The notes under the pieces: model-generated
Database searches by the model: none
What the model was told of the DNA's origin: nothing
What the model saw: the letters and a program-made list of their open reading frames with translations, nothing else
From: a virus
Lineage: Duplodnaviria; Caudoviricetes
Direction: 5' to 3' (one strand)
Length of the DNA stretch: 30,538 nt
Virus record (IMG/VR): IMGVR_UViG_3300049893_001639
Span: 1-30,538 of that record
Part shown: positions 917-21,201 of the stretch, piece after piece
Layout: each line of letters opens with the position of its first letter
Position numbering within the stretch: position 1 is the stretch's first letter
Translations under genes and position numbers: made by a program

Positions 917-2373
917 TCTTAGTCAATCCTGGCGGACAGCCAGAGATATTCCAGTCGTTGTCAGCGGGCGGGTTGACCGCTTTGGAGCCGCCTATCTGGT
1001 GTCGCTTGCTCGCGTCGTATCTGATTAACAAGGGGATATCTTGTGAGATTGTAGACACCGAGGTCTCTGGCATGTCGCCCAGCGTAGCGGCTACGGCTGT
1101 TGGCTTGTTTGATCCCAAGTTAATAGTCGTCGTTGTTCACGGTCATCAGCCGAGTGCGTCTACTCAAAAGATGCCAGCTGCGGTAACGCTGGTCAAGGCG
1201 ATTAAGCGAGAGGTGAAGGATGTCCCCGTGTTGATAGTCGGAGGCCACCCTGCTGCTCTACCTGAGCAAACGTTGAAGGAGACTGGAGCCGACTATGTCT
1301 GTACGGGAGAGGGTTTTATAGCTATCGAGCGGCTCGCGCATGGCGCGCATCCTTGGGGCGTGATAGGGGGTGACGGTTATCATACGCCATCAGCGCCTAA
1401 CGTGTCAGACTTAGATCACGAAGTCCCAGGCGGTTGCTGGGATTTATTGCCAATGAGTGGTTATAGGTCGTATGCTCACCACGCTTGGTCGAATAATTTT
1501 GAACGGCAACCTTATGCGAGCATCTATACTAGCCTGGGGTGCCCGTGGCGCTGCTCATTTTGCATGATCCAGTCGCCGTTTAGGCGCGGTGACGAGCAGG
1601 CATTAAAAGGTAAGGCTAACAGTTACCGTATGTGGTCAGCGGATCATGTCTTGCGAGAGGTCGAGACGCTGGTAGAGCGCTATAACGTAGTTAATATCCG
1701 CATAGATGATGAGATGTTTGTGCTTAATGAGTCGCATGTGTTTTCTATCTGCGACAAGATCACGGAGCGGTATGGCGATCGGCTCAACTTTTGGTGCTAT
1801 GGGCGAGTGGATTGTACTAGGCCAAAGTTTTTATACAGGTTGCGGCGGGCCGGGTTTAAGTGGTTGTGCCTCGGCATCGAGAGCGTAAGCGACGAGGTGC
1901 GCGATGGCATAGACAAGAGCCAGTACGGCGCTACGGATATTATTAAGACTGTTAGGCAGGTGCAGCAAGCAGGCATCAACGTGATTGGTAACTATATGTT
2001 TGGGTTGCCTAAGGACACGTTGCGGTCGATGGAGAACACGCTTCAATTAGCGTTAGAGCTAAAAACGGAGTACGTGAACTTTTACGCCACGGTGGCTTAC
2101 CCAGGTAGCGCGTTGTGGGACGAGAAGATCATGGCCGGGTGGCAGCCGCCACAGAATTGGTTGGCGTGGAGTTTTCATTCTAAGGAGCACACGCCGTTAG
2201 GGACCGAGACGCTGTCGCCCGTCGAGGTGTTGAGGTTTAGGGACGAGGCGTTTAAGCGCTACTTTCTAGACGGCGGGTACCGCAATTATGTTTGGCAGAA
2301 GTTTGGGCAGCGGGCCATTGAGGAGATAGACGGCATGTTAAGTCATGATTTGAAAAGAGATTTGTTTAGTTGA
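907..2373 (+). CDS. Cobalamin-binding radical SAM protein (class B methyltransferase-like)
   Basis: N-terminal B12-binding domain ('VGGHPAALPE','DYVCTGEG'); CxxxCxxC 'GCPWRCSFC'; 'IDDEMF','LGIES','GNYMFGLP','YPGSALW'. GTG start overlaps the upstream gene. Confidence 0.9.
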   Translation: MDVVLVNPGGQPEIFQSLSAGGLTALEPPIWCRLLASYLINKGISCEIVDTEVSGMSPSVAATAVGLFDPKLIVVVVHGHQPSASTQKMPAAVTLVKAIKREVKDVPVLIVGGHPAALPEQTLKETGADYVCTGEGFIAIERLAHGAHPWGVIGGDGYHTPSAPNVSDLDHEVPGGCWDLLPMSGYRSYAHHAWSNNFERQPYASIYTSLGCPWRCSFCMIQSPFRRGDEQALKGKANSYRMWSADHVLREVETLVERYNVVNIRIDDEMFVLNESHVFSICDKITERYGDRLNFWCYGRVDCTRPKFLYRLRRAGFKWLCLGIESVSDEVRDGIDKSQYGATDIIKTVRQVQQAGINVIGNYMFGLPKDTLRSMENTLQLALELKTEYVNFYATVAYPGSALWDEKIMAGWQPPQNWLAWSFHSKEHTPLGTETLSPVEVLRFRDEAFKRYFLDGGYRNYVWQKFGQRAIEEIDGMLSHDLKRDLFS

Positions 2374-2388
2374 CTCGGTTAGGAGCTT

Positions 2389-2622
2389 ATGCACTACGCA
2401 GAAACAAAATACGGCCTCGATTGGGGTTCGGCAAAAATCACACGATGCTTCTCGGACTCCAAGAAGGGATGGGTGACTCTGCTGCTCGAAACCCCGAAGC
2501 ACAAAGAGGGCAAGTCGCTGCAAATCTACGTGACGAAATCCGGCAAGGTTCGGATTCACGACGCACACGGCGAATGGAAAGCGCCGAAGGCGTCCGAGTT
2601 GAGGCACAATTATGCGAGGTGA
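2389..2622 (+). CDS. Small hypothetical phage protein
   Basis: AGGAG Shine-Dalgarno before ATG; packed in the operon. Confidence 0.7.
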   Translation: MHYAETKYGLDWGSAKITRCFSDSKKGWVTLLLETPKHKEGKSLQIYVTKSGKVRIHDAHGEWKAPKASELRHNYAR

Positions 2623-2625
2623 TAA

Positions 2626-2883
2626 ATGAAAGAGATATACGAAGACCCGAAAACCGGGCGATACAAGTGGCGCGAGAAACAATCTGAGAGCGAGCCTCCG
2701 GTTCGTGTCCAGCGCCTTGTTAGTCGTCGTCGTAAAAACCAAATCGTGATGGTGCTGGCCGCTCTAATGCTCGGAATAATCGGAGCATTACAAGGATGGA
2801 AGATGGTGCTCATCACAGTCGGACTGGCCGTGCTGCTCCTGTGTTTTTGGGGCTTCCTCGGCTGGTATCACCAAGACGACTAA
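2626..2883 (+). CDS. Small two-TM membrane protein (reads through an attC half-site; cassette 1)
   Basis: GAGGTG SD; two hydrophobic helices; the TAA stop lies inside the GACTAAC inverse core. Confidence 0.65.
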   Translation: MKEIYEDPKTGRYKWREKQSESEPPVRVQRLVSRRRKNQIVMVLAALMLGIIGALQGWKMVLITVGLAVLLLCFWGFLGWYHQDD

Positions 2884-2930
2884 CGCCAAGGCTGAGTAGC
2901 GCGAAGCGGCTATCTCAAGCCGTGGTATTG
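2878..2930 (+). repeat. attC-like site (degenerate right core)
   Basis: GACTAAC-N5-GGCTGAG TAGC GCGAAGCG GCTA TCTC(A)AGCC hairpin; no clean GTTRRRY follows. Confidence 0.55.
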
Positions 2931-2951
2931 ATAAGCAACGATGAACAAGCG

Positions 2952-3005
2952 CTCTAACGTTGGAACTGTGCGGCGCGAAGCGTCCGCACCAGTGAAAAGT
3001 TAGGT
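2952..3005 (+). repeat. attC-like site
   Basis: CTCTAAC ... ACTGTGCGG CGCGAAGCG T CCGCAC(C)AGT ... GTTAGGT; extrahelical bases on the right arm. Confidence 0.8.
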
Positions 3006-3027
3006 TGCGTAACGAACAGGAGAAAAT

Positions 3028-3240
3028 ATGGAAAATGTTTATTTGTGGCGTGACAAATACGATGCAAACCAGTTTTGGGTTGGCGTGAAGAATAGAAACG
3101 GAACTTCTTATTCCGGGTGGTTCGCATGTTTTTGTGATTCGTTTTCCGACTGTTTCGGACGAGACGCATGGGAAGCGGTGAAGGATATAGTGCCAGGAAG
3201 TGAACCCGTTCAAGTGCGTCTAACGTTGCATCTGAAATGA
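3028..3240 (+). CDS. Hypothetical protein (cassette 2)
   Basis: AGGAG SD; fills the cassette between GTTAGGTTGC and GCAACCTAAC. Confidence 0.75.
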   Translation: MENVYLWRDKYDANQFWVGVKNRNGTSYSGWFACFCDSFSDCFGRDAWEAVKDIVPGSEPVQVRLTLHLK

Positions 3241-3250
3241 ACAATAAGCA

Positions 3251-3336
3251 ACCTAACGCTTCGGTTCAGGCGGCGGAGAGAAAGCTATGAGTTCAGAGAC
3301 GACGTTGATCCGCTCGCCTGCAACCGATTGTTATGC
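3251..3336 (+). repeat. attC-like site with RBS and ATG in its loop
   Basis: ACCTAAC..TCGGTT CAGGCG GCGGA-loop-TCCGC TCGCCTG(C)AACCGA..GTTATGC. Confidence 0.8.
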
Positions 3337-3859
3337 GGCGTTTCGTTGTGTGGTGGCTGATCCACCGTGGACACCATCACTGCACCGGAACACAGTAGGG
3401 AGACGGGAGCCGAAGAACGGATACCGAGCAGGGCCACAGAAGTATTACCGGACGCTGACCTTGCCGGAGATTTGTGAGTTGCAGCCAGTGACGGCAGACA
3501 AGTGCCATTTGTGGTTGTGGGTTCTGAGCCAGCACGTTGATTGGGGCTACGCGGTCGCAAGAGCCTGGGGCTTTGAACCGCAGCAGATGTTGACGTGGGC
3601 CAAGCCGACGTTGGGGACAGGACAGTTTCAGTGCAACACGGAACACGTCTTGATGTGCCGCAAGGGCGGGCCGGTGGATAATGCATTTGGGATGACTTGT
3701 GGCACATGGTTTGAGTGGCCGAGACGGGAGCACAGCGAGAAACCAGCGGAGTTCTTTTCGTTGGTTGAGCGGGTGAGTCCGGGGCCACGGTTGGAGATGT
3801 TTGCGAGGACGCGACGACAAGGCTGGGAGTCATGGGGCGACCAGATCGAAGCCGCATAA
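3287..3859 (+). CDS. MT-A70-family N6-adenine methyltransferase (cassette 3)
   Basis: 'VVADPPW', 'HLWLWV', 'AWGF', 'TWAK', 'TEHVL', 'HSEKP', 'LEMFAR...GWESWGDQ'. Confidence 0.9.
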   Translation: MSSETTLIRSPATDCYAAFRCVVADPPWTPSLHRNTVGRREPKNGYRAGPQKYYRTLTLPEICELQPVTADKCHLWLWVLSQHVDWGYAVARAWGFEPQQMLTWAKPTLGTGQFQCNTEHVLMCRKGGPVDNAFGMTCGTWFEWPRREHSEKPAEFFSLVERVSPGPRLEMFARTRRQGWESWGDQIEAA

Positions 3860-3934
3860 CGTGGAGCTAACCGGCGAGCCACGCAGTGGCGAGTCCAGTG
3901 AGCGAAGCGAACGAGGTTGAGCGTATGGTTAGAG
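3854..3934 (+). repeat. attC-like site
   Basis: GCATAAC..GCTAACC...GCCAC GCA GTGGC...GAGCGAAGCGA..GGTT(G)AGC..GTTAGAG. Confidence 0.75.
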
Positions 3935-3937
3935 GGC

Positions 3938-4155
3938 AGAACTATGGGCAGCACGGCATGTAGGGCGGCAGGGCTAACGGGGCGTGACAACCCTGAAACG
4001 CTCTCGCCTACCCGAAACGCAACTAGCTCCGGCAGGCGGCGAAGCGCGAGGGTTTGCGTCACGGCGATGACACGCGCAGAGCTTGGCCGAAAGGTGGGTA
4101 GAACCGAAGTTAACGCCACCCCCGGAGTAAACCTTCGGCTGCTGTCCATACCTGT
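3938..4155 (+). ncRNA. Putative structured non-coding RNA (cassette 4), family unknown
   Basis: Closing stem TATGGGCAGC/GCTGTCCATA with a G-U pair; nested stems CAGGG/CCCTG, CTACCC/GGGTAG, AGCTC/GAGCT, CCGAAG/CTTCGG; GCC-GAAA-GGT GNRA loop; no convincing ORF. Confidence 0.5.
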
Positions 4156-4158
4156 GCC

Positions 4159-4218
4159 CTCTAACGCTGGCGGTGAGGGGCGCGAAGTATGAGCGTACCC
4201 TCCACCGCTTTGTTGGCC
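4159..4218 (+). repeat. attC-like site with ATG in its loop
   Basis: CTCTAAC..GCGGTG AGGG-loop-CCCT(C)CACCGC..GTTGGCC. Confidence 0.8.
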
Positions 4219-4695
4219 GGTCTGCATCAGAGCCAGCTTGCCCCGGCTGACAACAAGTTCCACGTCGGCAACGGAGACGACGGCAAGCACTACTGGCTGA
4301 CGCCGCCGGACCTGTACGCCGCGCTGAACGCGGAGTTCGGACCGTTCGACTTCGATCCATGCCCGTGGCCAAAGCCGGAAGGATTCGACGGCCTAACCTG
4401 CGAATGGGGCCAGCGCAACTACGTCAACCCGCCGTTCGGATCCATCATGCACAACGGGAAGAAGAAGGGGCCGACCGCTTGGATGCGGAAGGCGATTGAG
4501 GAACAGCGCAAGGGCAAGCTGTCCGTGGTGGTGTACCCGGTGGACAAGTGGGTGCTGATGATGCTGGCCGCAACCGGAGCGGCCAACGTCCGCAACCTGG
4601 GCGACGTGCGGTGGATGGCCACCGAGGACGGATCCCAAGGCAAAGGCACCGGGCGGCACATAGCCGCGTTCATTCTGTATCCGGCCAACCATTGA
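4189..4695 (+). CDS. Phage Dam-like N6-adenine DNA methyltransferase (cassette 5)
   Basis: 'HYWLTPP', 'FDFDPCP', 'DGLTCEW', 'YVNPPF', 'WMRKAIEE' are typical of the small phage Dam family. Confidence 0.8.
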   Translation: MSVPSTALLAGLHQSQLAPADNKFHVGNGDDGKHYWLTPPDLYAALNAEFGPFDFDPCPWPKPEGFDGLTCEWGQRNYVNPPFGSIMHNGKKKGPTAWMRKAIEEQRKGKLSVVVYPVDKWVLMMLAATGAANVRNLGDVRWMATEDGSQGKGTGRHIAAFILYPANH

Positions 4696-4756
4696 TTATA
4701 CGGATCGGCTTTTGTCGATAATAATATCTGCAAATGCCGCCTGCAAAGGAAATGCC

Positions 4757-5077
4757 ATGATCCGTCGTAATAAATACGGCAACCGTAGAATCGCCTTCGA
4801 TGGACAAAACTTTGACTCCATGAAGGAGTACCGCAGGTATCAGCAGTTACGATTGTACGAGAAGGCAGCAGAGATTTCTCAGATAGAGATACACCCAAAA
4901 TTTGCGTTGTGGGTAAATGACAAATTCATTTGCTCTTACATTGCCGATTTCCGCTATTTAGACCACGGCACAGGCCAATGGGTCGTCGAAGACTCCAAGG
5001 GCGTGCGAACACCGGTCTATCGATTGAAAAGGAAATTGATGAAGGCGTGCCTGGGAATTGAAATTTTGGAGACGTGA
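4757..5077 (+). CDS. DUF1064-family PD-(D/E)xK protein
   Basis: 'NKYGNRR...FDSMKEYRRY...YIADFRY...VVEDSKG..TPVYRLKRKL'; start moved to ATG 4757 (AGGA SD). Confidence 0.85.
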   Translation: MIRRNKYGNRRIAFDGQNFDSMKEYRRYQQLRLYEKAAEISQIEIHPKFALWVNDKFICSYIADFRYLDHGTGQWVVEDSKGVRTPVYRLKRKLMKACLGIEILET

Positions 5078-5382
5078 AAATGAAGATCACAAAGGAGGCC
5101 GATATCCAGCGAATGATTGTCGAAACGCTGGAAACTCTCGCCGAGCAAAACAAGCTGCGCTATGTCAGTCATCCCCCAATGCGCACCATCATTGTGTTTT
5201 TGCCCCACGCGGTGTGGGTAATCGAAACCAAATCGCAGAAAGGAAAGTTCGGAGAGCATCAATTACTGTGGCAAAATTGGTTTCTCAACGCAGGAGACGC
5301 CGATCTGTATCACTATTCCATGCCGCGCACCGTGAAGGACGCTAACGCGTTAATTGATGCGCTGCTAAAGGAGTCGGGATGA
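5074..5382 (+). CDS. VRR-NUC-like protein
   Basis: 'EADIQ..I', 'IETKSQKGK...HQ..WQ', 'RTVKDA'. Confidence 0.6.
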   Translation: MKMKITKEADIQRMIVETLETLAEQNKLRYVSHPPMRTIIVFLPHAVWVIETKSQKGKFGEHQLLWQNWFLNAGDADLYHYSMPRTVKDANALIDALLKESG

Positions 5383-5991: not shown

Positions 5992-6214
5992 CGGGTATTG
6001 TGAGAAGAATTGAAGGAAGGGGAGGTGATGCCAAGTGGGTTTTTGTACTTGCGACAATCCGGTATATTTGGGAGGCTGTCAGAAACATAATAAATCCGCG
6101 TCTTAGCCGGGGGCAGCGCATCCGGCCAAAAACACGCAAAGTTTTAGGTTTATTTTTTGATTGAAAGGTAATATAATAACGGCACGGGGGAGGGAGATAG
6201 GGGCAAGTGCTGAA

Positions 6215-7207
6215 GTGTTGGTGGTGAGGACGCCGTTTAGAGTTTCGTTTTGCGGGGGAGGCACCGACTTCCCAGCTTGGTTTGTCACCAGGCCGGGGGC
6301 CGTCGTCTCTGCCGCCATCAATCGTTATTGTTACCTCACGCTCCGTCACCTACCGCCGTTTTTTGACTACGACTCGCGTTTCGTTTGGTCCCGCATAGAG
6401 CAGGTCAGTTCTCTCGACGAAGTTTATCACCCCGCCATCAAGGGCTGCCTTAAGTTCTTAGGTTTAGAGAAACCATCTATTCAACTCCACCACGACGCCG
6501 ACCTACCGGCCCAGTCGGGCACGGGCAGCAGCGCGGCGTTTACCGTCAGCTTACTACACGCATTGTATGCCGAGAGGTGCCGTCTGGTCACGGCGGAACA
6601 GCTGGCGATTAACGCCATGCAGGTAGATCAAGACGTAGTGGGCGAGGTTACTGGTTGTCAGGACCACGTGGCGGTGGCCTGCGGGGGCGTCAATCATATC
6701 GATTTCGGCCCCGCCAGGCACGACTTCCGGGTAAAGATGCTGCCCGTAGACACTCAGGCGTTGGGGCATCACCTGATGATGTTCCACACCAAACAGTATA
6801 GGCAATCTACGGCAAGTGATATAGAGACTATTAAGTGGCAGGGCCGTCCTGACGAGCAGTTGTTGAGGGCGCAGTACGAGCTGACGCCCAGGTGCTTAAT
6901 GGCCTTGGCCGATGGTGATTATGCTGCGTTGGGCAAGGTGTTGAGCGAGAGTTGGTTGTTGAAGCGGGAGCTGGCCAAGGAGGTCAGCAACTCCCACGTA
7001 GACGATTGTTATTGGCGTGCGCTGGACGCCGGGGCCTATGGGGCCAAGCTGTGTGGCGCGGGAGGCGGGGGCATATTGTTGGTGGCCGCCCCGCCCGATA
7101 AGCGTGAGCGGTTGAGGCAGGCGCTGGCCGATTGTGTATATGTGCCGTTTGGCGTTGATCACGAGGGCAGCCGCCTGGTCTATCGCGGCGGGCAGGAGCT
7201 GGGGTGA
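6215..7207 (+). CDS. GHMP-family sugar kinase (HddA/heptose-7-phosphate kinase-like)
   Basis: 'RTPFRVSFCGGGTD', 'PAQSGTGSS', 'GCQDH', 'KLCGAGGGG'; start probably GTG near 6215 rather than 6161. Confidence 0.85.
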   Translation: MLVVRTPFRVSFCGGGTDFPAWFVTRPGAVVSAAINRYCYLTLRHLPPFFDYDSRFVWSRIEQVSSLDEVYHPAIKGCLKFLGLEKPSIQLHHDADLPAQSGTGSSAAFTVSLLHALYAERCRLVTAEQLAINAMQVDQDVVGEVTGCQDHVAVACGGVNHIDFGPARHDFRVKMLPVDTQALGHHLMMFHTKQYRQSTASDIETIKWQGRPDEQLLRAQYELTPRCLMALADGDYAALGKVLSESWLLKRELAKEVSNSHVDDCYWRALDAGAYGAKLCGAGGGGILLVAAPPDKRERLRQALADCVYVPFGVDHEGSRLVYRGGQELG

Positions 7208-7305
7208 TGTTGGCTGATACAGACTACTAATTACTATTACCCAGTTGTAAATCAGACCTGGGTTAACCAGGAGAAAGTCTGATACGTATCAGACAGATGT
7301 GAATC

Positions 7306-7797
7306 ATGGAACTAAAGCTAAGCGACTTAAAGCAAGACAAAAAGAATGCCCGTAAGCACACTTCTCGCAATATAGGCATGATAGAGGAGTCTTTACGAGC
7401 GGTCGGCGCGGCTAGAAGCGGGGTTATAGACGAAAATGGGACTATCTTAGCCGGCAATGGAACCTATGAGGCGCTTACTAATGTCGGAATAGATAAGGTC
7501 AAGGTGGTAGAAGCCGATGGTAATGAGTGGGTAGTCGTCAAGCGCAGCGGATTGACCGAGGAGCAAAAGCGCAAACTCGCACTGGCTGACAACCGAGCAA
7601 GCGACATAGCCGAATGGGATGCAATAGCACTGTCCGAGTTGGACATTGATTTATCTCCATTCTTTTCTGAGCAGGAACTTAAGGATATTGGTATAACCGT
7701 CCCAGACTTCAATGGATTAGACGGAGATTCTCAATCGCGATTAGATCAAAAGAAGCCAGTCGTTTGTCCAGCGTGCGGTCATGAGTTTACGACTTGA
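7306..7797 (+). CDS. ParB/Srx-like N-terminal domain protein with C-terminal Zn ribbon
   Basis: 'NARKH', 'VIDENGTILAGNG', 'LALADNR..DIAEWD', 'CPACGHEF'. Confidence 0.85.
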   Translation: MELKLSDLKQDKKNARKHTSRNIGMIEESLRAVGAARSGVIDENGTILAGNGTYEALTNVGIDKVKVVEADGNEWVVVKRSGLTEEQKRKLALADNRASDIAEWDAIALSELDIDLSPFFSEQELKDIGITVPDFNGLDGDSQSRLDQKKPVVCPACGHEFTT

Positions 7798-8464
7798 TTT
7801 TTGTAGCTATGATGCCGCAAAGTATGCGGTTGAACACTGGCACTATTCGCGGACAATGCCAGTAGGCAAGATGGTTAAGTTAGGAGTATGGGAGGAATCG
7901 GTATTTATTGGCGCAGTGATTTTTGGGCTCGGCGGCGGCAATGCGTGTAACGGCAAGCGTTATGGACTGGCGCGAAATTTTGAAATGGCAGAACTTGTGC
8001 GGATCGCACTACGTAAGCATAGGGCTCCGGTGAGTCGAATTATTGCTATAGCGTGCCGGTTGCTTCATCGGCAGTCACCCGGATTGCGTCTAATAATCTC
8101 ATATGCAGACCCGTCTCAGTCTCATCATGGTGGAGTTTATCAAGCTGCCGGCTGGATTTATACCGGACGCTCCAGCGCAAGTTGGAAGGCGGTATGGCCA
8201 GATGGGCGTCAGGCGCACGCTAGAATTGCATATGGTCACGTGCAATTTGGGATAAAGAAAACTGTAGACATTTCAAATGCTAAGAAAGTTTTAGTCCCCG
8301 GCAAGCACCGTTATTTGTACCCCTTGAATGACGAAATAAGGCAGCGAATCTTGCCGCTAGCCAAGCCATATCCCAAGCGCGCTGCAAGTGAAACCATCGA
8401 CACGCCGATCCACCAGATCGGAGAGGGCGGGGAAGCACCGACCGCAGCGCTCCAACCAATCTGA
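7781..8464 (+). CDS. mom: Mom-like DNA (adenine) modification protein, GNAT fold
   Basis: 'HWHYS', 'ELVRIAL', 'ISYADPSQSHHGGVYQAAGWIYTG', 'KHRYLYPL...PYPK'. Confidence 0.8.
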   Translation: MSLRLDFCSYDAAKYAVEHWHYSRTMPVGKMVKLGVWEESVFIGAVIFGLGGGNACNGKRYGLARNFEMAELVRIALRKHRAPVSRIIAIACRLLHRQSPGLRLIISYADPSQSHHGGVYQAAGWIYTGRSSASWKAVWPDGRQAHARIAYGHVQFGIKKTVDISNAKKVLVPGKHRYLYPLNDEIRQRILPLAKPYPKRAASETIDTPIHQIGEGGEAPTAALQPI

Positions 8465-14213: not shown

Positions 14214-17090
14214 ATGCCTATTATAGAACACTTATTGAGACTCGCTGGGTACGCTAAGACGCCCTCAGCCAACAGGCAGGTGGCAGTTGCCGATCCAGGT
14301 AAGAGCCAAGAGCCGCCTACTATAAGTTCGGCGGGTAGCTTTTTTGGCTTCTACGGCAGGCCACATCTCGGCTCGGCTTTTTTACCCACCCCGTATAATC
14401 CTGATACGCTTGTTCAGCGTAAGGGGCTGAAGACCTACCGCACCATGCTCACCGACGAGCAGGTGAAGGCGGCGCTATTGGCCAAGAAGTACGCCGTGCT
14501 CAGTAACGGGTACGAGATACAGCTGGCGCAGCTGCCCGAGAGCAAGACGCAGCCGGGGCAGCCGCCAGCTAAGCCCGGCGAGAAGAAGCCGCCGTTTGGC
14601 CAACCGTTATCTGAAGAAAGCGAAGAGGCAAACGGCGAGGAGGCTGGCAACGAGGATGAGTTGTTCTCCCGTCGTTATCTGTCCCCTGGTCAAAACGGCA
14701 ATGGTAATAAGGTGAGTAATGGGCGTGACCTCGGAGGCAACGGCTTTAACGCCGAGCCGCCGTTCAACGGGGCAAGCGGCGAGGGCGAGCAGTTTCTAGG
14801 GGGCAACGGAGCAGAGGAGCCGGTTGAGGAAGAGGAGGAGCCGCGTGATCCCTTGTTGGAGGCCGCCGAGGAGCACAAGGAATTTATCGAGTTCGTGTTT
14901 GAGGAGATGAAGGGCAGCTTTAACAGCAAGCTGTTGAACATCATGTCGGCGGTGGAGTTCGGCTACTCAGTCAGCGAGAAGGTTCTGCAGAAGATCGACT
15001 TTGGGGACTTTGAGGGCAAGTGGGGGCTGCAGGACATCTTGACGCGCCCGCCCGAGGACATCGAGTTTCAAATAGACGCCTACGGGCGATTAACTCCCAA
15101 TGGCGTGATGCAGTTTGGCGATTACCTACCGGCTGACAAGTTTGTTATTTACTCCCATGCGCAGCAGTTTGGTAACCTATATGGCAACAGCGACTTGCGA
15201 GCGGCTTATAGATGCTACAGCGATGATACTGAAATTTTAACCGAATATGGCTGGAAGATGTTGTCTGCGGTGACGATAGAAGATCGAGTTGCGACACTGA
15301 ATCCGAAAACCGACACGCTAGAATATCAATATCCCAGCAAGCTGTATGCATATAGACATCAAGGCAAGATGTTTCATCAGGGCGGTCGATTTATCGATTT
15401 TTTAGTTACGCCCAATCATGAAATGTGGGCTAAGGGAGAAAATGAATCGAAATTCAGAACAATTCCGGTTCAAGATCTGCCGAGGCATGCCAACTATAAA
15501 CGCAATGCTAGATGGATTGGCGTAGAACCGTCAACGTTCGATTTGCCTGATTTTTTCGTTGACCAGATTGTAGCTAATCAATTTGGCCGATATAGAGAAC
15601 GTAGAAATTATCAATCGATGCGTCATATTCCGATAGAATCGTGGCTGAGTTTCTTTGGAGTATGGTTAGCAGAGGGCCATACTTGGCAACGTAAGGATGG
15701 TAACAAGCAGCGCATCGTGGGTATTACGCAAAATCCCGGTCCCAAATTAGAGTTGATAAAGAAGTGGGTAACCGACTGTGGCTTTGCCTACTACGAACAC
15801 AAAGGAACAGAGACTCATAAAGCCAGTATTATTGAGATATGCAATGTTCAACTATTCGAGTATTTAAAGAGGTTTGGCGGTTCTTATGATAAGTTTATCC
15901 CGCATGAACTTAAGCAGCTATCACCGCGATTGCTACGCATACTTTACGATGCATTGATGCTTGGAGACGGTAGGCACAATAGGGAATATTGTACAGTGTC
16001 ACGTCGGCTCGCTGATGATGTGGCCGAAATTATTTTCAAGATGGGATATGCTGCTACAATTAGTGTCGAAAAATTAAAACGATTCGGCCCCATCTTTGTA
16101 ATAGGCAGAAATGAGCGCCGAATTGGCAATACGCGAGTCAATGAACATATAGATAGACGAGAATGGATTGATTATGACGGGATGGTTTATTGCTTAGAAG
16201 TGCCCAATCATATTGTCTATGTCCGTCGAGATGGAAAAGCGGCGTGGTCGAGGAATAGCTATTGGGCCAAGGATAACATGCTGAAGCTGATGGCGGTGTC
16301 GCTAGAGCGCTATGCCGAGCCGATAGCCGTGGCCACGTACAAGGGCCTGTTGGACGGCGACCAGCGCGACGATTTGCAAGGCTTTTTGAAGAACCTGCAG
16401 AGCCGGTCGGGCATCATCTTGCCTGAGTCGGTTGTGTTGGATTTTAAGTCCCCGCCGCCCAGGGCCGCTGAGGCGTTCATCCCGGCCATTAACCTGTATG
16501 ACCAGCACATCCGCATGGCCATCCTGATGCCAGGTCTGATCGGGCTGAGCGGTGAGCAGACCACTGGTAGCTTTGCGCGGGCCGTCAAGGAGTTTGACGT
16601 CTTCTTGTGGATACTTGGCCATCTGCGCAAGGACATAGAGACCGTCGTCAACGAGCAGATCATTAAGCCGCTGATCGATATGAACTACGAGGTCGAGCAT
16701 GGGCAATACCCCAAGTTCAAGTTCAAGGAGATCACCGAGGAGGCGCGGCGAGCGCAGTTCGAGTTGTTTATAACGGGCTTAGGCAGCGGGGCCTTGACCA
16801 AGGGGCCAGAGGATGAGGACAAGCTGCGAGAGCTGATAGGGTTTGAGCCGCTGCCGGAGGACTTTGAGCCACCAGAGCAGCCTAGTCCGTTCGGTAACCT
16901 GCCCTTTGGCGGGCCTCAGCCTCCTGAGCAGCAGCCGCCGCAGTTTGGCGGGCCGCCTAACGGCAATGGTAACGGCGGGTGGCCGCCAGCTGAGGAGGAG
17001 CCTGTTGACGAAGACGAGTTCCAGTTCAGCGCTGATCAAGAGGCGCGGCTGGTGGAGTTCGTGAACAAGATGAGGAGTAAGACGGTATAG
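14214..17090 (+). CDS. Portal protein (DUF935/Mu gp29-like), intein-containing
   Basis: 'YRTMLTDEQVKAAL', 'AVEFGYSVSEKV', 'GNLYGNSDLRAAY', 'ERYAEP', 'VNEQIIKPLIDMN'; position after TerL. Confidence 0.9.
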   Translation: MPIIEHLLRLAGYAKTPSANRQVAVADPGKSQEPPTISSAGSFFGFYGRPHLGSAFLPTPYNPDTLVQRKGLKTYRTMLTDEQVKAALLAKKYAVLSNGYEIQLAQLPESKTQPGQPPAKPGEKKPPFGQPLSEESEEANGEEAGNEDELFSRRYLSPGQNGNGNKVSNGRDLGGNGFNAEPPFNGASGEGEQFLGGNGAEEPVEEEEEPRDPLLEAAEEHKEFIEFVFEEMKGSFNSKLLNIMSAVEFGYSVSEKVLQKIDFGDFEGKWGLQDILTRPPEDIEFQIDAYGRLTPNGVMQFGDYLPADKFVIYSHAQQFGNLYGNSDLRAAYRCYSDDTEILTEYGWKMLSAVTIEDRVATLNPKTDTLEYQYPSKLYAYRHQGKMFHQGGRFIDFLVTPNHEMWAKGENESKFRTIPVQDLPRHANYKRNARWIGVEPSTFDLPDFFVDQIVANQFGRYRERRNYQSMRHIPIESWLSFFGVWLAEGHTWQRKDGNKQRIVGITQNPGPKLELIKKWVTDCGFAYYEHKGTETHKASIIEICNVQLFEYLKRFGGSYDKFIPHELKQLSPRLLRILYDALMLGDGRHNREYCTVSRRLADDVAEIIFKMGYAATISVEKLKRFGPIFVIGRNERRIGNTRVNEHIDRREWIDYDGMVYCLEVPNHIVYVRRDGKAAWSRNSYWAKDNMLKLMAVSLERYAEPIAVATYKGLLDGDQRDDLQGFLKNLQSRSGIILPESVVLDFKSPPPRAAEAFIPAINLYDQHIRMAILMPGLIGLSGEQTTGSFARAVKEFDVFLWILGHLRKDIETVVNEQIIKPLIDMNYEVEHGQYPKFKFKEITEEARRAQFELFITGLGSGALTKGPEDEDKLRELIGFEPLPEDFEPPEQPSPFGNLPFGGPQPPEQQPPQFGGPPNGNGNGGWPPAEEEPVDEDEFQFSADQEARLVEFVNKMRSKTV
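15213..16256 (+). mobile_element. Intein with LAGLIDADG homing endonuclease in the portal (348 aa)
   Basis: Block A 'CYSDDTEILTEYGW', block B 'VTPNH', 'FFGVWLAEG' and 'DALMLGDG', block F 'VYCLEVPNH', end 'WSRN|S'; visibly AT-richer than the flanks. Confidence 0.93.
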
Positions 17091-17094
17091 GCCA

Positions 17095-19479
17095 ATGACG
17101 CCTAGCTCTTCTAACCGCTTAGAATTCTTAGACAGGCTGATCAAGCTGATGCAGCTGAGGCAGACGGCGGCGCGTCGGTATCACCTGCCGGGTGAACACG
17201 AGCAGGAATCGCATGGTGGGGGTGGAGAGCATCAAGAGAAGCCGATTGGTAGCGGCGGCAAGATTCATTTAACCAATGAACAGCTTGATAAGAAATTTGG
17301 CAAGCGCGGCACTAAGAATAAAGTTCCACCCGGCACTCAATTCGGTTCGATACTTGCCATTAAATTAAAGTCTGGCGGACTGGTCATGGGCCAAGTGACT
17401 CCGCATGAGAATTGGGCAAAAGGTGGGAAAGACACTGGCAAGTTGATATTGACGACCAGCAAAGGCGAGCGTATCGAGATAGACCGCGGCATGAAGTATG
17501 TCCCGGCTATAGGTGAAAATGCGGTAGGCGGCTTGTGGCAACACGATCCTGACAAAAAAGGCGGAGATATAGAAAGATCGTGGCGTCTAACTCGCGCTGT
17601 TGCTGAACACGCTGAACAAGCCATAGCCAAAGAATATCACCTGCCCGGCCAGCACGAGCAGCAGAGTCATGCAGGCGGTGCATCTGATAATCGTGATCGA
17701 GATTCAAAGGATAGATACAACCATGCTGAAGCGGTTGCGACAGACCCTCATGCCATAGCTCATGTAAGTCTTACGCCTGGCCAACGCAAACAACCGTGGC
17801 AAATGAGCCAACAAGAATACGAATCGTTGCCGGTCGTATATCGCGGAGGCAAAGTAGGTACTGGCTTCATGTTTGTCACTCAAGATAGGCGGTTAGCGGA
17901 AATTCACGGGCAAGGTAGAATCACCGCATTTAAAGTGCTGCCGTCGTCCAAAGTATTCGCCGACCCAGAGATTGAGGGCGAACAGGATAGGGCGTTGAAT
18001 GGATTGGAATCGTTAAAGATAGCGTCAGCCGTGGTTCACGCCAACGACTTGATTCCTAATTTTAGCTATGGCGCATGGAAGCATGAGAGCGGTAAACGCT
18101 ATCATCTCCCTGGTGAACACGACCAAGAGGCCCACGGCAACCGAGATGGCGCAAGCGAGGACAAGCCTGGTGGCAAGGCGGATGTGACTCGGACGCCTGA
18201 GTTCAAGAAATGGTTTTCTGGGTCAAAAGTTGTTGACGCTAAGGGCGAGCCGCTGGTTGTGTATCATGGGACATTCAGAGGGAACAATTTCGAAGAGTTC
18301 AGGTCGACTAAATTCCCAGGTGTCGCCGGTTACTTTTCTACAAGTCCAGAGCTCGCGAGCCTAGCTGCTGAACCGATGTTTAGGAGCGAAGAGGAAAACG
18401 CCAACCCGCACGTTATCCCAGCTTATCTCAGTCTCAAGAATCCATTAGACGCTACGAGTCTAGGCGGCGACCCTGGCGGCCACATAAATTCCTACACGTT
18501 CAGGGAGATCATTTCTAAGCTAGGGTTAAAGGCGAAGGAGCACGAGATCACCGACGTAGACGAGTTTCGCTGGGAGGGCAGAAAGAACCCAGTATGGTCG
18601 GCGCTAGCTACGCCACAATTTATAGAAATTGTTAAGCGCAACGGTTACGACGGGGTTAAATTTCACGATGTGCAATTGCCTGAATATGTCTCAGGACCAA
18701 CTGTCGAATATGTAGCGTTCGCATCTAACCAAGTCAAATCCAAATTCAATCGCGGAACCTTTGACCCCAAAGACCCCCGCATCAGCTACGACCGTTCATC
18801 CAATCAAGTCCATGTTTGCGCTAATGGCAACGGCTACCGCCTGGCCTTGATGGGGTTCGACTTCACCGAACGATCATATCACTTGCCAGGGGAGCATGAT
18901 CAGGAGAGCCATGCAGGAGATGATAAGCCGAGCAGTCGTATTAGCAAACGGCGCGAGTTTTCAGGCAGTCCTGTTCATACTCGTACCCGTTGGACTAAGC
19001 TGGAAACTGGCGAGCGCGGCGAGAGCATAGCGATAAATTACTTACGTAAGCTTGGGTTTAAAGATGCACGCAAGTTCGAGTTTAGCGGGCGCAATAATTT
19101 GCCGGTAGATTTAATTCACGATCATGAAATATACGAAGTTAAGGCGGGCATGATTTACAATCAACCCGACGCGCAAAAGTGGCGCTTGACATTAGGGCAA
19201 CCAGGGAAAAAAGAAACCGAGTGGTTGCATAAAGCGCGAGATTCAGAGCGAGCGGCTTGGAATAAGCGCAAGGCGCAACTAGTTATAAAGCGTAAGCGCG
19301 AATTAGTGCAGAAATTGTCCAAAGAGTTAGGTAGGCCGGTTAAGTTAAAGACCCTTACGATGGTCATAAACCCAGATACGCAGCGCGCCGATTTGCACGT
19401 ATTTGATGGCACGCATCCTATTATCAGGTGGCGGTCGCCAGAAGCGCAAAAGGCGTATGTGGGTACGATTAAATTTTAA
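17095..19479 (+). CDS. Head-associated polyvalent protein: four YHLPGxHxQxxH-tagged modules (unknown, ART-like, ART-PolyVal-like, PD-(D/E)xK nuclease)
   Basis: 'VVYRGG..FVTQDRRLA'; 'FKKWFSGSKVVDAKGEPLVVYHGT..YFST..YLSLKNP..GYDGV'; 'GERGE..VDLIHDHEIYEVK'. Confidence 0.75.
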   Translation: MTPSSSNRLEFLDRLIKLMQLRQTAARRYHLPGEHEQESHGGGGEHQEKPIGSGGKIHLTNEQLDKKFGKRGTKNKVPPGTQFGSILAIKLKSGGLVMGQVTPHENWAKGGKDTGKLILTTSKGERIEIDRGMKYVPAIGENAVGGLWQHDPDKKGGDIERSWRLTRAVAEHAEQAIAKEYHLPGQHEQQSHAGGASDNRDRDSKDRYNHAEAVATDPHAIAHVSLTPGQRKQPWQMSQQEYESLPVVYRGGKVGTGFMFVTQDRRLAEIHGQGRITAFKVLPSSKVFADPEIEGEQDRALNGLESLKIASAVVHANDLIPNFSYGAWKHESGKRYHLPGEHDQEAHGNRDGASEDKPGGKADVTRTPEFKKWFSGSKVVDAKGEPLVVYHGTFRGNNFEEFRSTKFPGVAGYFSTSPELASLAAEPMFRSEEENANPHVIPAYLSLKNPLDATSLGGDPGGHINSYTFREIISKLGLKAKEHEITDVDEFRWEGRKNPVWSALATPQFIEIVKRNGYDGVKFHDVQLPEYVSGPTVEYVAFASNQVKSKFNRGTFDPKDPRISYDRSSNQVHVCANGNGYRLALMGFDFTERSYHLPGEHDQESHAGDDKPSSRISKRREFSGSPVHTRTRWTKLETGERGESIAINYLRKLGFKDARKFEFSGRNNLPVDLIHDHEIYEVKAGMIYNQPDAQKWRLTLGQPGKKETEWLHKARDSERAAWNKRKAQLVIKRKRELVQKLSKELGRPVKLKTLTMVINPDTQRADLHVFDGTHPIIRWRSPEAQKAYVGTIKF

Positions 19480-21201
19480 AGCAGTATGGATTATCCGCTG
19501 AAAGAAGTAGAAGCAGAATTTTTAGCCGCGCTAGATAGTGAAGGCGAGGCATGGTTACGCGAAATGACGGAGCGATTACGCAACGTGCCGAAGAGTCCGC
19601 GCTACGCCTACGCGCGCGCCAATGGTAACGGCTACCGCCTGGCCCTGATGGGCTTCGACTTCACCGACCTGCCGCTGCGCCGTAAGCAGTTCGCGGCTTA
19701 CTTGAGACGTAACGGGGTTGCGCGAGACGTAGCGGAACGGGAAGCGGCGGGGCTTAGGCACTCGTGGGAGTTTGCGGCGTCCACTAGCGGCAAATCCTTC
19801 TTTCAGACTCTTCCCGCATGGCGCGGCACATTGGACCTAACCCCCGGCAGCGATGGGCTTAAGCTGTTCGATGAGTACCAGCATGTGAGGGGATACCATT
19901 TGCCTGGGGAGCACGATCAGCAGAGCCATGCTGGGGAAGATCAGCGTGTTGATGATGATAAGAACTATTTAGGCGGAGGTTCGCGATTGCCTTCGATGGT
20001 TTATCGAGGCGGAAGTAATCAAAATACGTCTGAAAGTTTTCCAGCCGGGGTATATGTTTCAACTAATCGAGATGCGGCTAAGCAATGGGGGCCAGTAGTC
20101 GAGCATAAGATAGTGAAACAACCTAGATTACTTGACCTTGGTAACTGGCACAGCCTTGGCGCTAAGAGCATCGTAGCGCGGCTCACTGGCCAAAGACCTG
20201 GCGGCATGGATTTTAATGACTATGATCAGGCGGCTGCTGAATTATTTATTCAAATGCCAGACGAGCTGGTACGAGTGCTGCGTAAGAATGGGTTTGATGG
20301 CGCGCGGTTCGGTCAAGATGCCTTTTTGATCGGGAAGTTAGATGATTATACTAAGAACGTGAGGCGGCACGAAGCCTATCAGCCGAACGATGACGAGGCG
20401 ATTAAGGTACATCACCAACGCGAGATGACCAAGGCCGAGCGCCGGTGCGACTTCGCGGCTATTAAGAAGCAGTTCGACGAGGATGCCTTAAAGATAGACT
20501 TGGCCATGCGTGAGCCGATCAAGACCGCTCGTGACGCCCTGTTGGCCATGATCCGGCAGTGGGGGCCTAACGAGGTAACGCCTGAGTTCATCCAGTCGGT
20601 TAAGTTAACGACGGGGCCGGAGCTGGGGCAGCTGCTGAACGAATACCTGCTAGCTACGTGGCGCAAGAACAGGGACTTGGCGCTGGCTGAGCTGCCTGAG
20701 GGAACGCAAGCTAGGTTAGCTGGGATGAGAAAGTACCATCTGCCGGGGCAGCATGATCAGCAAACGCACGCCGGGGATGATGAGGGTAACGGCGGCGAGT
20801 ATAATCGCGCAGGCAAGGTAGTCAGTGGGCTAAAGGTACGGTCTTTTGTGCCCAATCAAGATTCTATTGCTGCCTCGCTTACTGATTATGAGATTTTGCC
20901 GGGTATACGCGAGGTGCCATTGGCGTCGTTTGATCCTCAGTATCAGCCGGTACGCGATGATCGCACAAAAGCATTGGCTGAGCAGATTAAGGCCAGTGGT
21001 GAAATTAACCCGTTAATAGTCGCGGTGGATTCTAAGGGGCCTTACATCATCGAGGGCGGTCATCGCTTTGATGCCATGTATTTGTTGGGTGTGAGGTCGT
21101 TTCCAGCGATGGTAGTGATTGATAAAGAAGCTGATGTGCCGAGATTTAAATATGCCCATAAGTATCACTTACCTGGCGAGCATGATCAGCAGAGTCATGC
21201 C
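17179..21201 (+). repeat. Seven dispersed in-frame repeats encoding YHLPG(E/Q)H(D/E)Q(E/Q)(S/A/T)H(G/A)
   Basis: Copies start at 17179, 17635, 18100, 18877, 19894, 20734 and 21163; codons differ synonymously. Confidence 0.95.
18820..19667 (+). repeat. 50-bp direct repeat (18820-18869 and 19618-19667) encoding ANGNGYRLALMGFDFT
   Basis: 46/50 identical, and all four differences are synonymous. Confidence 0.9.

Follow-up and report, generated by a model that had tools for sequence, protein, structure and literature searches.

A phage operon with a predicted attI-type site and minus-strand attC sites beside plus-strand genes, likely served by a host integron integrase in trans

A cassette array within a phage operon

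The window analysed here is a whole virus record (IMG/VR IMGVR_UViG_3300049893_001639) of 30,538 bp, approximately 31% complete, whose plus strand carries nearly all of its genes. Near its left end lies a row of gene cassettes separated by hairpins of attC type and followed by a predicted attI-type site (Table 1). The arrangement is that of an integron array in mirror image, with attC sites on the minus strand and genes on the plus strand, and we consider it likely that a host integron integrase (IntI), acting in trans, has filled and shuffled it.

The cassettes were first recognised by the exactly complementary ends of successive segments. A preliminary description of the sequence had listed five such pairs, and all five are present (2719/2884, 2999/3257 and 3330/3860, 10 nt each; 3928/4165, 11 nt; 4212/4689, 9 nt). 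Among 1,000 dinucleotide shuffles of 2683-4689, 898 gave no pair, 99 gave one and three gave two, never more, and one chance pair of the same kind lies elsewhere in the window (14933/15852). The same description had the five segments follow one another directly; the pairs stand, but segments 1 and 2 do not adjoin, being separated by a degenerate hairpin (2882-2926) that has no GTT and by a short remnant, which brings the units to six in total. It had also given every hairpin one unpaired base on its right arm. This holds for the four intact hairpins, in which the unpaired base is the fourth of the right-arm L box (C at 2956-3001, 3255-3332 and 4163-4214, G at 3858-3930); of the first (2678-2721) there is a right arm alone. 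No hairpin follows the last segment and its gene. Its view that the cargo is of phage type was correct, with MT-A70 and Dam-type methyltransferases that match phrog_359 and phrog_111.

Table 1. Cassettes, recombination sites and cargo of the array. Core values are the geometry score with the plus strand as bottom strand versus the opposite reading; R2 is our covariance model.
Feature	Position	Strand	Description
Cassette 1 gene	2626..2883	+	85-aa protein with hydrophobic C-terminal half, from the open reading frame list and translation
H0, eroded attC	2678..2721	-	Right arm (plus strand) with GTT at 2719 alone recognisable
Remnant sixth cassette	2884..2957	-	Degenerate hairpin H1a (2882-2926, closing GTT lost) and ~30 bp ending CTCTAA
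H1b, intact attC of cassette 2 (2958-3256)	2956..3001	-	Core 7/7 vs 4/7; R2 26.2 bits, E 4.7e-4, minus strand
Cassette 2 gene	3028..3240	+	70-aa protein; GGAG at 3019, start 3' of the hairpin
H2, intact attC of cassette 3 (3257-3859)	3255..3332	-	Core 7/7 vs 4/7; R2 22.9 bits, E 0.0026, minus strand
Cassette 3 gene	3287..3859	+	MT-A70-family methyltransferase, 190 aa; PF05063 E 8.8e-20; phrog_359 E 4e-36
H3, intact attC of cassette 4 (3860-4164)	3858..3930	-	Core 7/7 vs 2.5/7, extra G; R2 30.4 bits, E 5e-5, minus strand
Cassette 4 cargo	3943..4150	+	Candidate structured noncoding RNA, closed by a helix (3943-3953/4140-4150) and with a loop-loop pairing (3983-3988/4058-4063)
H4, intact attC of cassette 5 (4165-4688)	4163..4214	-	Core 7/7 vs 5/7; R2 15.1 bits, E 0.17, minus strand, weak
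Cassette 5 gene	4189..4695	+	Dam-type adenine methyltransferase, 168 aa; PF05869 E 4.1e-7; phrog_111
attI-type site	4687..4704	-	Predicted to take insertions as double-stranded DNA; R box and L box separated by 6 bp; crossover expected between 4688 and 4689

Genes and sites overlap closely. The cassette 1 gene reads through the right arm of H0, and its stop codon, like that of the cassette 3 gene, is the TAA of a core box. The loop of H2 contains the GGAG (3275) and ATG (3287) of the cassette 3 gene and that of H4 the ATG (4189) of the cassette 5 gene, which itself crosses the predicted crossover and stops inside the attI-type site. The small proteins of cassettes 1 and 2 gave no Pfam or PHROG match; their Atlas matches, below 0.9 and at 0.80 respectively, are leads only. 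At H0 the geometry score fails on both strands (core 3/7), model R2 finds no match, and a contig of run X2 aligns solely over about 2690-2722. H1a folds as a hairpin yet fails the geometry score, and the ends of the remnant cassette are not complementary. Just to the left of the array, at 2360-2625, a GTTAG at 2378 lies immediately 5' of a 77-aa open reading frame (ORF; 2389-2622) with attC-like scraps near its end, and this may be an older, more eroded cassette.

Polarity of the attC sites

The extrahelical bases of an attC site sit on the R''-L'' arm, the first of them setting both the choice of strand and the crossover box, according to Bouvier 2009 (PMC2727003). In the phage hairpins the unpaired bases occur on the plus strand's right arm, which puts the canonical site on the minus strand. 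The four intact sites have R''/R' boxes (AAC ... GTT), unpaired spacers of 5/6 nt and paired L boxes, a geometry that H0 and H1a fail, and with the plus strand taken as bottom strand each of the four forms all seven core pairs, as against 2.5 to 5 in the opposite reading (Table 1). The extra base on the bottom strand is C in three sites and the usual G in one. We also built our own covariance model (R2, distinct from that of IntegronFinder) from ten canonical sites, three from phage TJE1 and seven from Desulfobacterales metagenome-assembled genomes (MAGs). It matched the four intact sites on the minus strand only, with the next matches elsewhere at E of at least 3.3. The core geometry and these minus-strand matches together place the predicted crossover at AA|C on the plus strand.

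With this crossover each cassette starts with the C of one AAC and finishes with the AA of the next, which places its own hairpin before its gene. In gene cassettes the gene reads towards its attC site; here all four genes read away from their own sites, and two begin inside their own hairpin loops. Judged from sequence and predicted folding, the sites are of attC type and lie on the minus strand while the cassette genes read along the plus strand.

The preliminary description had assumed the canonical arrangement, in which crossing over takes place at plus-strand G|TT and a hairpin goes with the gene before it. The complementary segment ends are compatible with both polarities and so do not decide between them, and phage TJE1 does have the canonical layout. 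We nevertheless regard this arrangement as very improbable here: the extra bases would be on the wrong arm, R2 matches the minus strand alone, the upstream hairpin travels with its gene (see below), the last gene is followed by the attI-type site with no hairpin between, and start codons would have to come from the neighbouring cassette.

An attI-type site at the right end

On the minus strand, 4687-4704 reads TAA, six bases, GTT, a spacing equal to that of the Shewanella attI printed in Qi 2023 (PMC9892861). Searches with a degenerate form of this 18-mer returned 17 viral loci. Directly upstream of the motif, eight carry attC sites of the same polarity, with none on the downstream side; three have less than 125 bp of upstream sequence yet share flanks with those eight, and the remaining six show nothing (four of these being one sequence). 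The eight array-closing loci represent about five independent lineages, L242 being the same contig as L028. Among 28 bacterial loci the motif has a divergent IntI within 3 kb in two, a Chthoniobacter MAG (L258, 335.5 bits) and a Desulfobacterales MAG (L249, 370.8 bits; cut-off 265), and four Desulfobacterales loci have upstream attC sites with no adjacent intI; most of the others look like chance matches. The phage array thus has at its head, as a complete integron does, a site whose motif it has in common with IntI-linked loci, and we predict that 4687-4704 is an attI-type site closing the array at its right end. A scan for a cassette promoter (Pc) gave one weak minus-strand match at 4747-4718, with 1.4 expected by chance.

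Cassettes were then walked behind the motif, with none found in 6 of the 18 loci given. The longest ORF was on the plus strand in eight of 12 viral cassettes, on the minus strand in one and ambiguous in three; in bacteria it was on the minus strand in six of seven and ambiguous in the other. These counts point to one attI family whose cassettes are canonical in bacteria but flipped in phages. The Desulfobacterales MAGs behind loci L247, L249, L252, L254, L257, L262, L266, L271 and L274 carry two or three copies of the motif per genome, several with arrays and no adjacent intI, and service in trans may be normal in these hosts.

Cassettes move as units

In 80 viral loci with a Dam homologue, the flanks of L038-L058 aside, our site detector reported 46 sites whose bottom strand was the sense strand and six of the opposite kind. 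On 15 Dam loci chosen for having sites, R2 gave 36 matches in 11 loci, 35 of them antisense to the Dam gene. A count of longest-ORF orientation in the Dam loci (11 inverted, five canonical, four with no ORF) was noisy from GC-rich shadow frames and was set aside as a main test.

Breakpoints were examined in 19 of the 80 Dam loci together with the window, where 31 pairs passed the identity filter and some anchors were misplaced. In three clean pairs of almost identical cassettes, L017/L018, L021/L028 and L023/L036, identity rose at the upstream AAC from 0.36, 0.44 and 0.04 to 1.00, 1.00 and 0.95, and fell at the closing AAC from 0.97, 0.97 and 0.88 to 0.15, 0.15 and 0.35. Over all 31 pairs the mean identity was 0.29 before and 0.52 after the upstream AAC, and 0.79 before and 0.32 after the closing AAC. 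Both L028 and L030 end at the attI motif, which keeps them alike past the closing AAC (0.75). Nine copies of cassette 4 have nine different hairpins directly past the closing AAC; L282 and L284 have a common upstream hairpin with different DNA before it, and in L288, the closest copy, the hairpin resembles H3. Homologues of cassettes 4 and 5 have therefore moved as units with breakpoints at the predicted crossover, and, as read from these alignments, the upstream hairpin travels with its gene. Base-exact breakpoints, in cassettes 92-100% alike at their ends but in different neighbourhoods, point to recent movement within a pool.

The preliminary description was right that the hairpins are of attC type, as borne out by the core geometry and by the R2 matches, all minus, which served as the covariance-model check it had proposed, and right that the units are mobile. 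It had expected related copies to break at G|TT on the plus strand. Homologous cassettes instead share the upstream hairpin and diverge at AA|C, after the closing AAC, which, with the extra bases on the right arm and the minus-strand matches, leaves that crossover without support.

These breakpoints also bear on two further explanations. If the hairpins were RNA elements, either terminators or processing sites, their folding on the sense strand and the start codons held in two of them would follow naturally. Such elements give no account of the complementary ends, of the 5/6-nt spacers with their extra base, of an attI motif shared with IntI-linked bacterial loci or of base-exact breakpoints, and we find this explanation hardly credible. 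The array might otherwise be a relic, built once by IntI and now a fixed, decaying segment of the operon moved by homologous or illegitimate recombination. H0 and H1a have indeed decayed and only a remnant is left of one cassette, the run contigs gave no excision joint, and in L301-L305 the cassette 4 RNA has no site upstream of it. Against this are set four intact sites, five intact end pairs and an intact attI, together with the base-exact breakpoints between cassettes with nearly identical ends and different surroundings, so that a frozen relic appears distinctly unlikely.

The sole joint found in run contigs at 85% lies inside the Dam gene (4313-4443, short side) and likely comes from another organism. 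The loop motif of H1b was tried as a lead to the host, but its matches were mostly chance (7 of 128 loci passed a loose spacing pattern) and no host was named. In L281 (995-1030), L289 and L290 the hairpin before cassette 4 is reduced to its right arm at the same point; the cut follows a common 12-base stretch, which may be the end of an insertion sequence. L091 (~2160-2490) contains an unrelated cassette body with the same 11-base end boxes as cassette 4 and a different interior.

A likely structured RNA in cassette 4

Homologues of cassette 4 were found at 13 loci (six of ten metagenome matches and seven of seven viral matches), five of the viral ones without an upstream site. Two exact motifs found none in bacterial genomes (0 and 2 chance matches), one exact motif had 0 viral matches, and model R1 found no further copy in 54 sources; the homologues, as found, occur in viral and metagenome contigs only. 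A model of 46 base pairs, drawn by hand from seven alignment rows that represent about five lineages, holds in all seven of those same rows, with seven pairs changed on both sides and every wobble a G-U on the plus strand. A blind search on five rows gave seven doubly changed pairs in helices of at least 5 bp, a number reached by one of 1,000 permutations (p ~0.001), and recovered both the closing helix and the crossing pairing 3983-3988/4058-4063.

An 82-aa protein from this cassette was considered and rejected with moderate confidence: its frame is open, with in-frame indels, in four of the seven rows and broken in L301, L303 and L305. Rfam 15 gave no match at the gathering score or at E up to 10, and ARAGORN found no tRNA or tmRNA. 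A noncoding RNA, structured and with a loop-loop pairing, is the likely cargo of cassette 4; our best guess is that a stable RNA is processed out of the operon transcript, although the element may be a folded single-stranded DNA. In L301-L305 (~2312-2545) the RNA, without an upstream attC, directly follows a transglycosylase (SLT) gene and is likely a domesticated copy.

Source of the integrase

A profile search with PF00589 found no tyrosine recombinase in the contig (31% complete), so the intI that stands beside attI in a complete integron is absent from it, and the statement in the preliminary description that no integrase is in view stands; that account had overlooked both the attI-type site and the noncoding nature of cassette 4. 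With at least two attC sites and no integron integrase nearby, the array falls under the definition of a CALIN, an attC cluster that has no integron integrase. The records behind the Dam and motif loci (n=28) include seven with a PF00589 match, of which three were tested against NCBIfam and one is a true IntI. This IntI scores 291 bits and belongs to viral contig G018 (L036), where it follows a homologous Dam cassette, also inverted, by ~700 bp. At 3810-4185, between that array and intI, L036 has one cassette of opposite polarity, at the L-box side of an attI-like site (R2 match 4090-4150, plus); it may be a natural L-box insertion, an event that PMC4792948 reports as rare.

The same inverted array could be served by an enzyme of the phage itself, either an IntI encoded in the two thirds of its genome that the assembly lacks or an ordinary phage tyrosine integrase. 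The incompleteness of the contig, the IntI beside such an array in L036, and a tyrosine recombinase of 300-400 aa in each of G031, G035, G033 and G003 all favour this explanation. However, a DUF1064/resolvase gene here sits where intI stands beside attI in L036, L249 and L258; the IntI profile TIGR02249 matched in 0 of 11 viral records with this attI, among them two complete phages with the array (G031 and G035); and the recombinases of these complete phages are phrog_1 and lie ~8 kb or more from the array. An own enzyme is therefore unlikely in our view. Given the rest of the interpretation, a host IntI acting in trans is the likeliest enzyme, and we hold to it with good confidence.

Proposed mechanism and its weight

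Under the preferred reading, that of a host integrase working in trans, IntI would act on the folded plus strand with a cut at AA|C, release a cassette as a circle and insert it at attI. The newest cassette, at present that of the Dam gene, would land at the promoter-distal end of the phage transcript rather than beside a cassette promoter, and the phage operon would read the cassette genes. Because attI faces against the operon and the phage transcript reads the genes, only cassettes with flipped genes would be useful here. The cargo would supply two orphan methyltransferases, likely for anti-restriction, two small proteins, and the likely structured RNA, probably cut from the operon transcript. 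G exceeds C across the whole window (9,206 versus 7,059), and if the plus strand is the leading strand, the bottom strand would be on the lagging template, a position said in PMC5371416 to favour recombination.

Several observations weigh against this proposal. The R2 score of H4 is weak (E 0.17), two of the six sites are eroded and part of the array may be frozen. No recombination joint was found at any site in the contigs of two runs, contigs being forms of the data that drop rare variants, and a terminase search and blastn of 2300-5100 found no close relative with an empty site. An integrase of its own is possible in the rest of a genome that is 31% complete, and an ordinary phage integrase (phrog_1) is present elsewhere in all four array-bearing phage records tested. 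The attI orientation test used longest ORFs, with small numbers and viral loci that are not all independent, and the direction of replication is inferred from skew alone. As to generality, none of eight MT-A70 homologues is in a cassette, most Dam homologues are free genes, and inversion is not universal among phage arrays, TJE1 being canonical.

A broader proposal is more tentative. Phages may carry an integrase-free, mirror-image integron, with a host-type attI in an operon, a host IntI serving it during infection or lysogeny, and a pool of cassettes made by phages. It is likewise possible, though we would not call it probable, that in this phage-made pool ordinary phage genes and a new pseudoknotted RNA have been packaged behind an attC hairpin that holds start signals. 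The same genes are found both free and as cassettes, and phages would on this view be a setting in which new cassettes arise. The origin of cassettes is described as largely unknown in PMC5371416, and gene families seen in both states in phages provide matched pairs for its study. The bottom-strand rule has been explained in print as aligning genes with the Pc promoter. One attI family that is canonical in bacteria and flipped in phages would mean that a single enzyme family has two cassette pools, opposite in polarity. In a host integron a flipped cassette would stay silent, and in the phage a defence cassette from the host would read antisense. Such platforms can be searched for directly with the attI motif, and cassette 4, a candidate new RNA, already has a structural model.

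Surrounding genes

The array is set among radical SAM and sugar-kinase genes, with the DUF1064/resolvase gene directly 3' of it, followed by Mom, terminase, portal and capsid genes. Glycosyltransferase-like, B12 radical SAM, GHMP kinase, ParB-like and Mom genes on both sides (20-2373 and 6161-8464) form a cluster for DNA or surface modification. Further downstream (14214-23583), the portal protein is very long at 958 aa and its residues 328-441 are also matched by thymidylate synthase and reductase profiles, perhaps an intein; also encoded in this region are an ART-PolyVal protein of 794 aa and a Mu-F protein of 1,365 aa that contains an intein and a ParB domain. The terminase search confirmed no close relatives, and blastn of 2300-5100 against annotated phages gave a single kind of match, Dam.

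Comparison with known systems

Phage attC arrays have already been published: Qi 2023 (PMC9892861) describes 17 phage CALINs without integrase and with methyltransferase cargo, and IntI1 recombined five of the six phage sites tested there with attI1. The present array resembles these in its attC clusters without integrase and its DNA methyltransferase cargo, and the Shewanella prophage CALIN of that study also has its own attI. Unlike here, its main text describes no genes antisense to attC or starting inside a site, and no RNA cassette. We checked three of its phages. The layout is canonical in TJE1 and inverted in PH101 (one site) and in MW202573 (four R2 matches antisense to genes, in L316:2069-3738). 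In PH101 attC2, located in L317:1501-1551, the bottom strand is the sense strand of the flanking genes, and it was this sense strand that IntI1 recombined in Qi 2023. In the literature searched, mostly outside subscription journals, we found neither the inverted layout nor an RNA cassette of this kind described.

The integrons of the Chthoniobacter MAG (L258) and of Desulfobacterales MAGs (L249 and others) have the same attI motif, the same attC geometry and the array on the same side of attI. They differ in having IntI after attI (2 of 28 motif loci) and the canonical gene direction (six of seven, one ambiguous), whereas the phage array has no intI there and its genes are flipped. Insertions of the SALIN (single attC lacking an integron integrase) and attG kinds, as set out in the cited part of bioRxiv 10.1101/2022.09.11.507474, likewise involve IntI placing cassettes outside a complete integron, that is, activity in trans; their targets are short GWT sites, whereas the phage target is a conserved site of the attI family with several cassettes in a row. 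Cassettes without a protein are known from integrons, and the account of ORF-less cassettes in PMC8876359 says that some encode regulatory RNAs or promoters. Cassette 4 differs from these in its multi-helix fold, its covarying loop-loop pairing, its recovery from viral and metagenome contigs only and its lack of an Rfam match. What is new is the attI family and the RNA cassette. The array departs from integrons in two features, the intI beside attI and the orientation of the genes, yet it would work like an integron platform.

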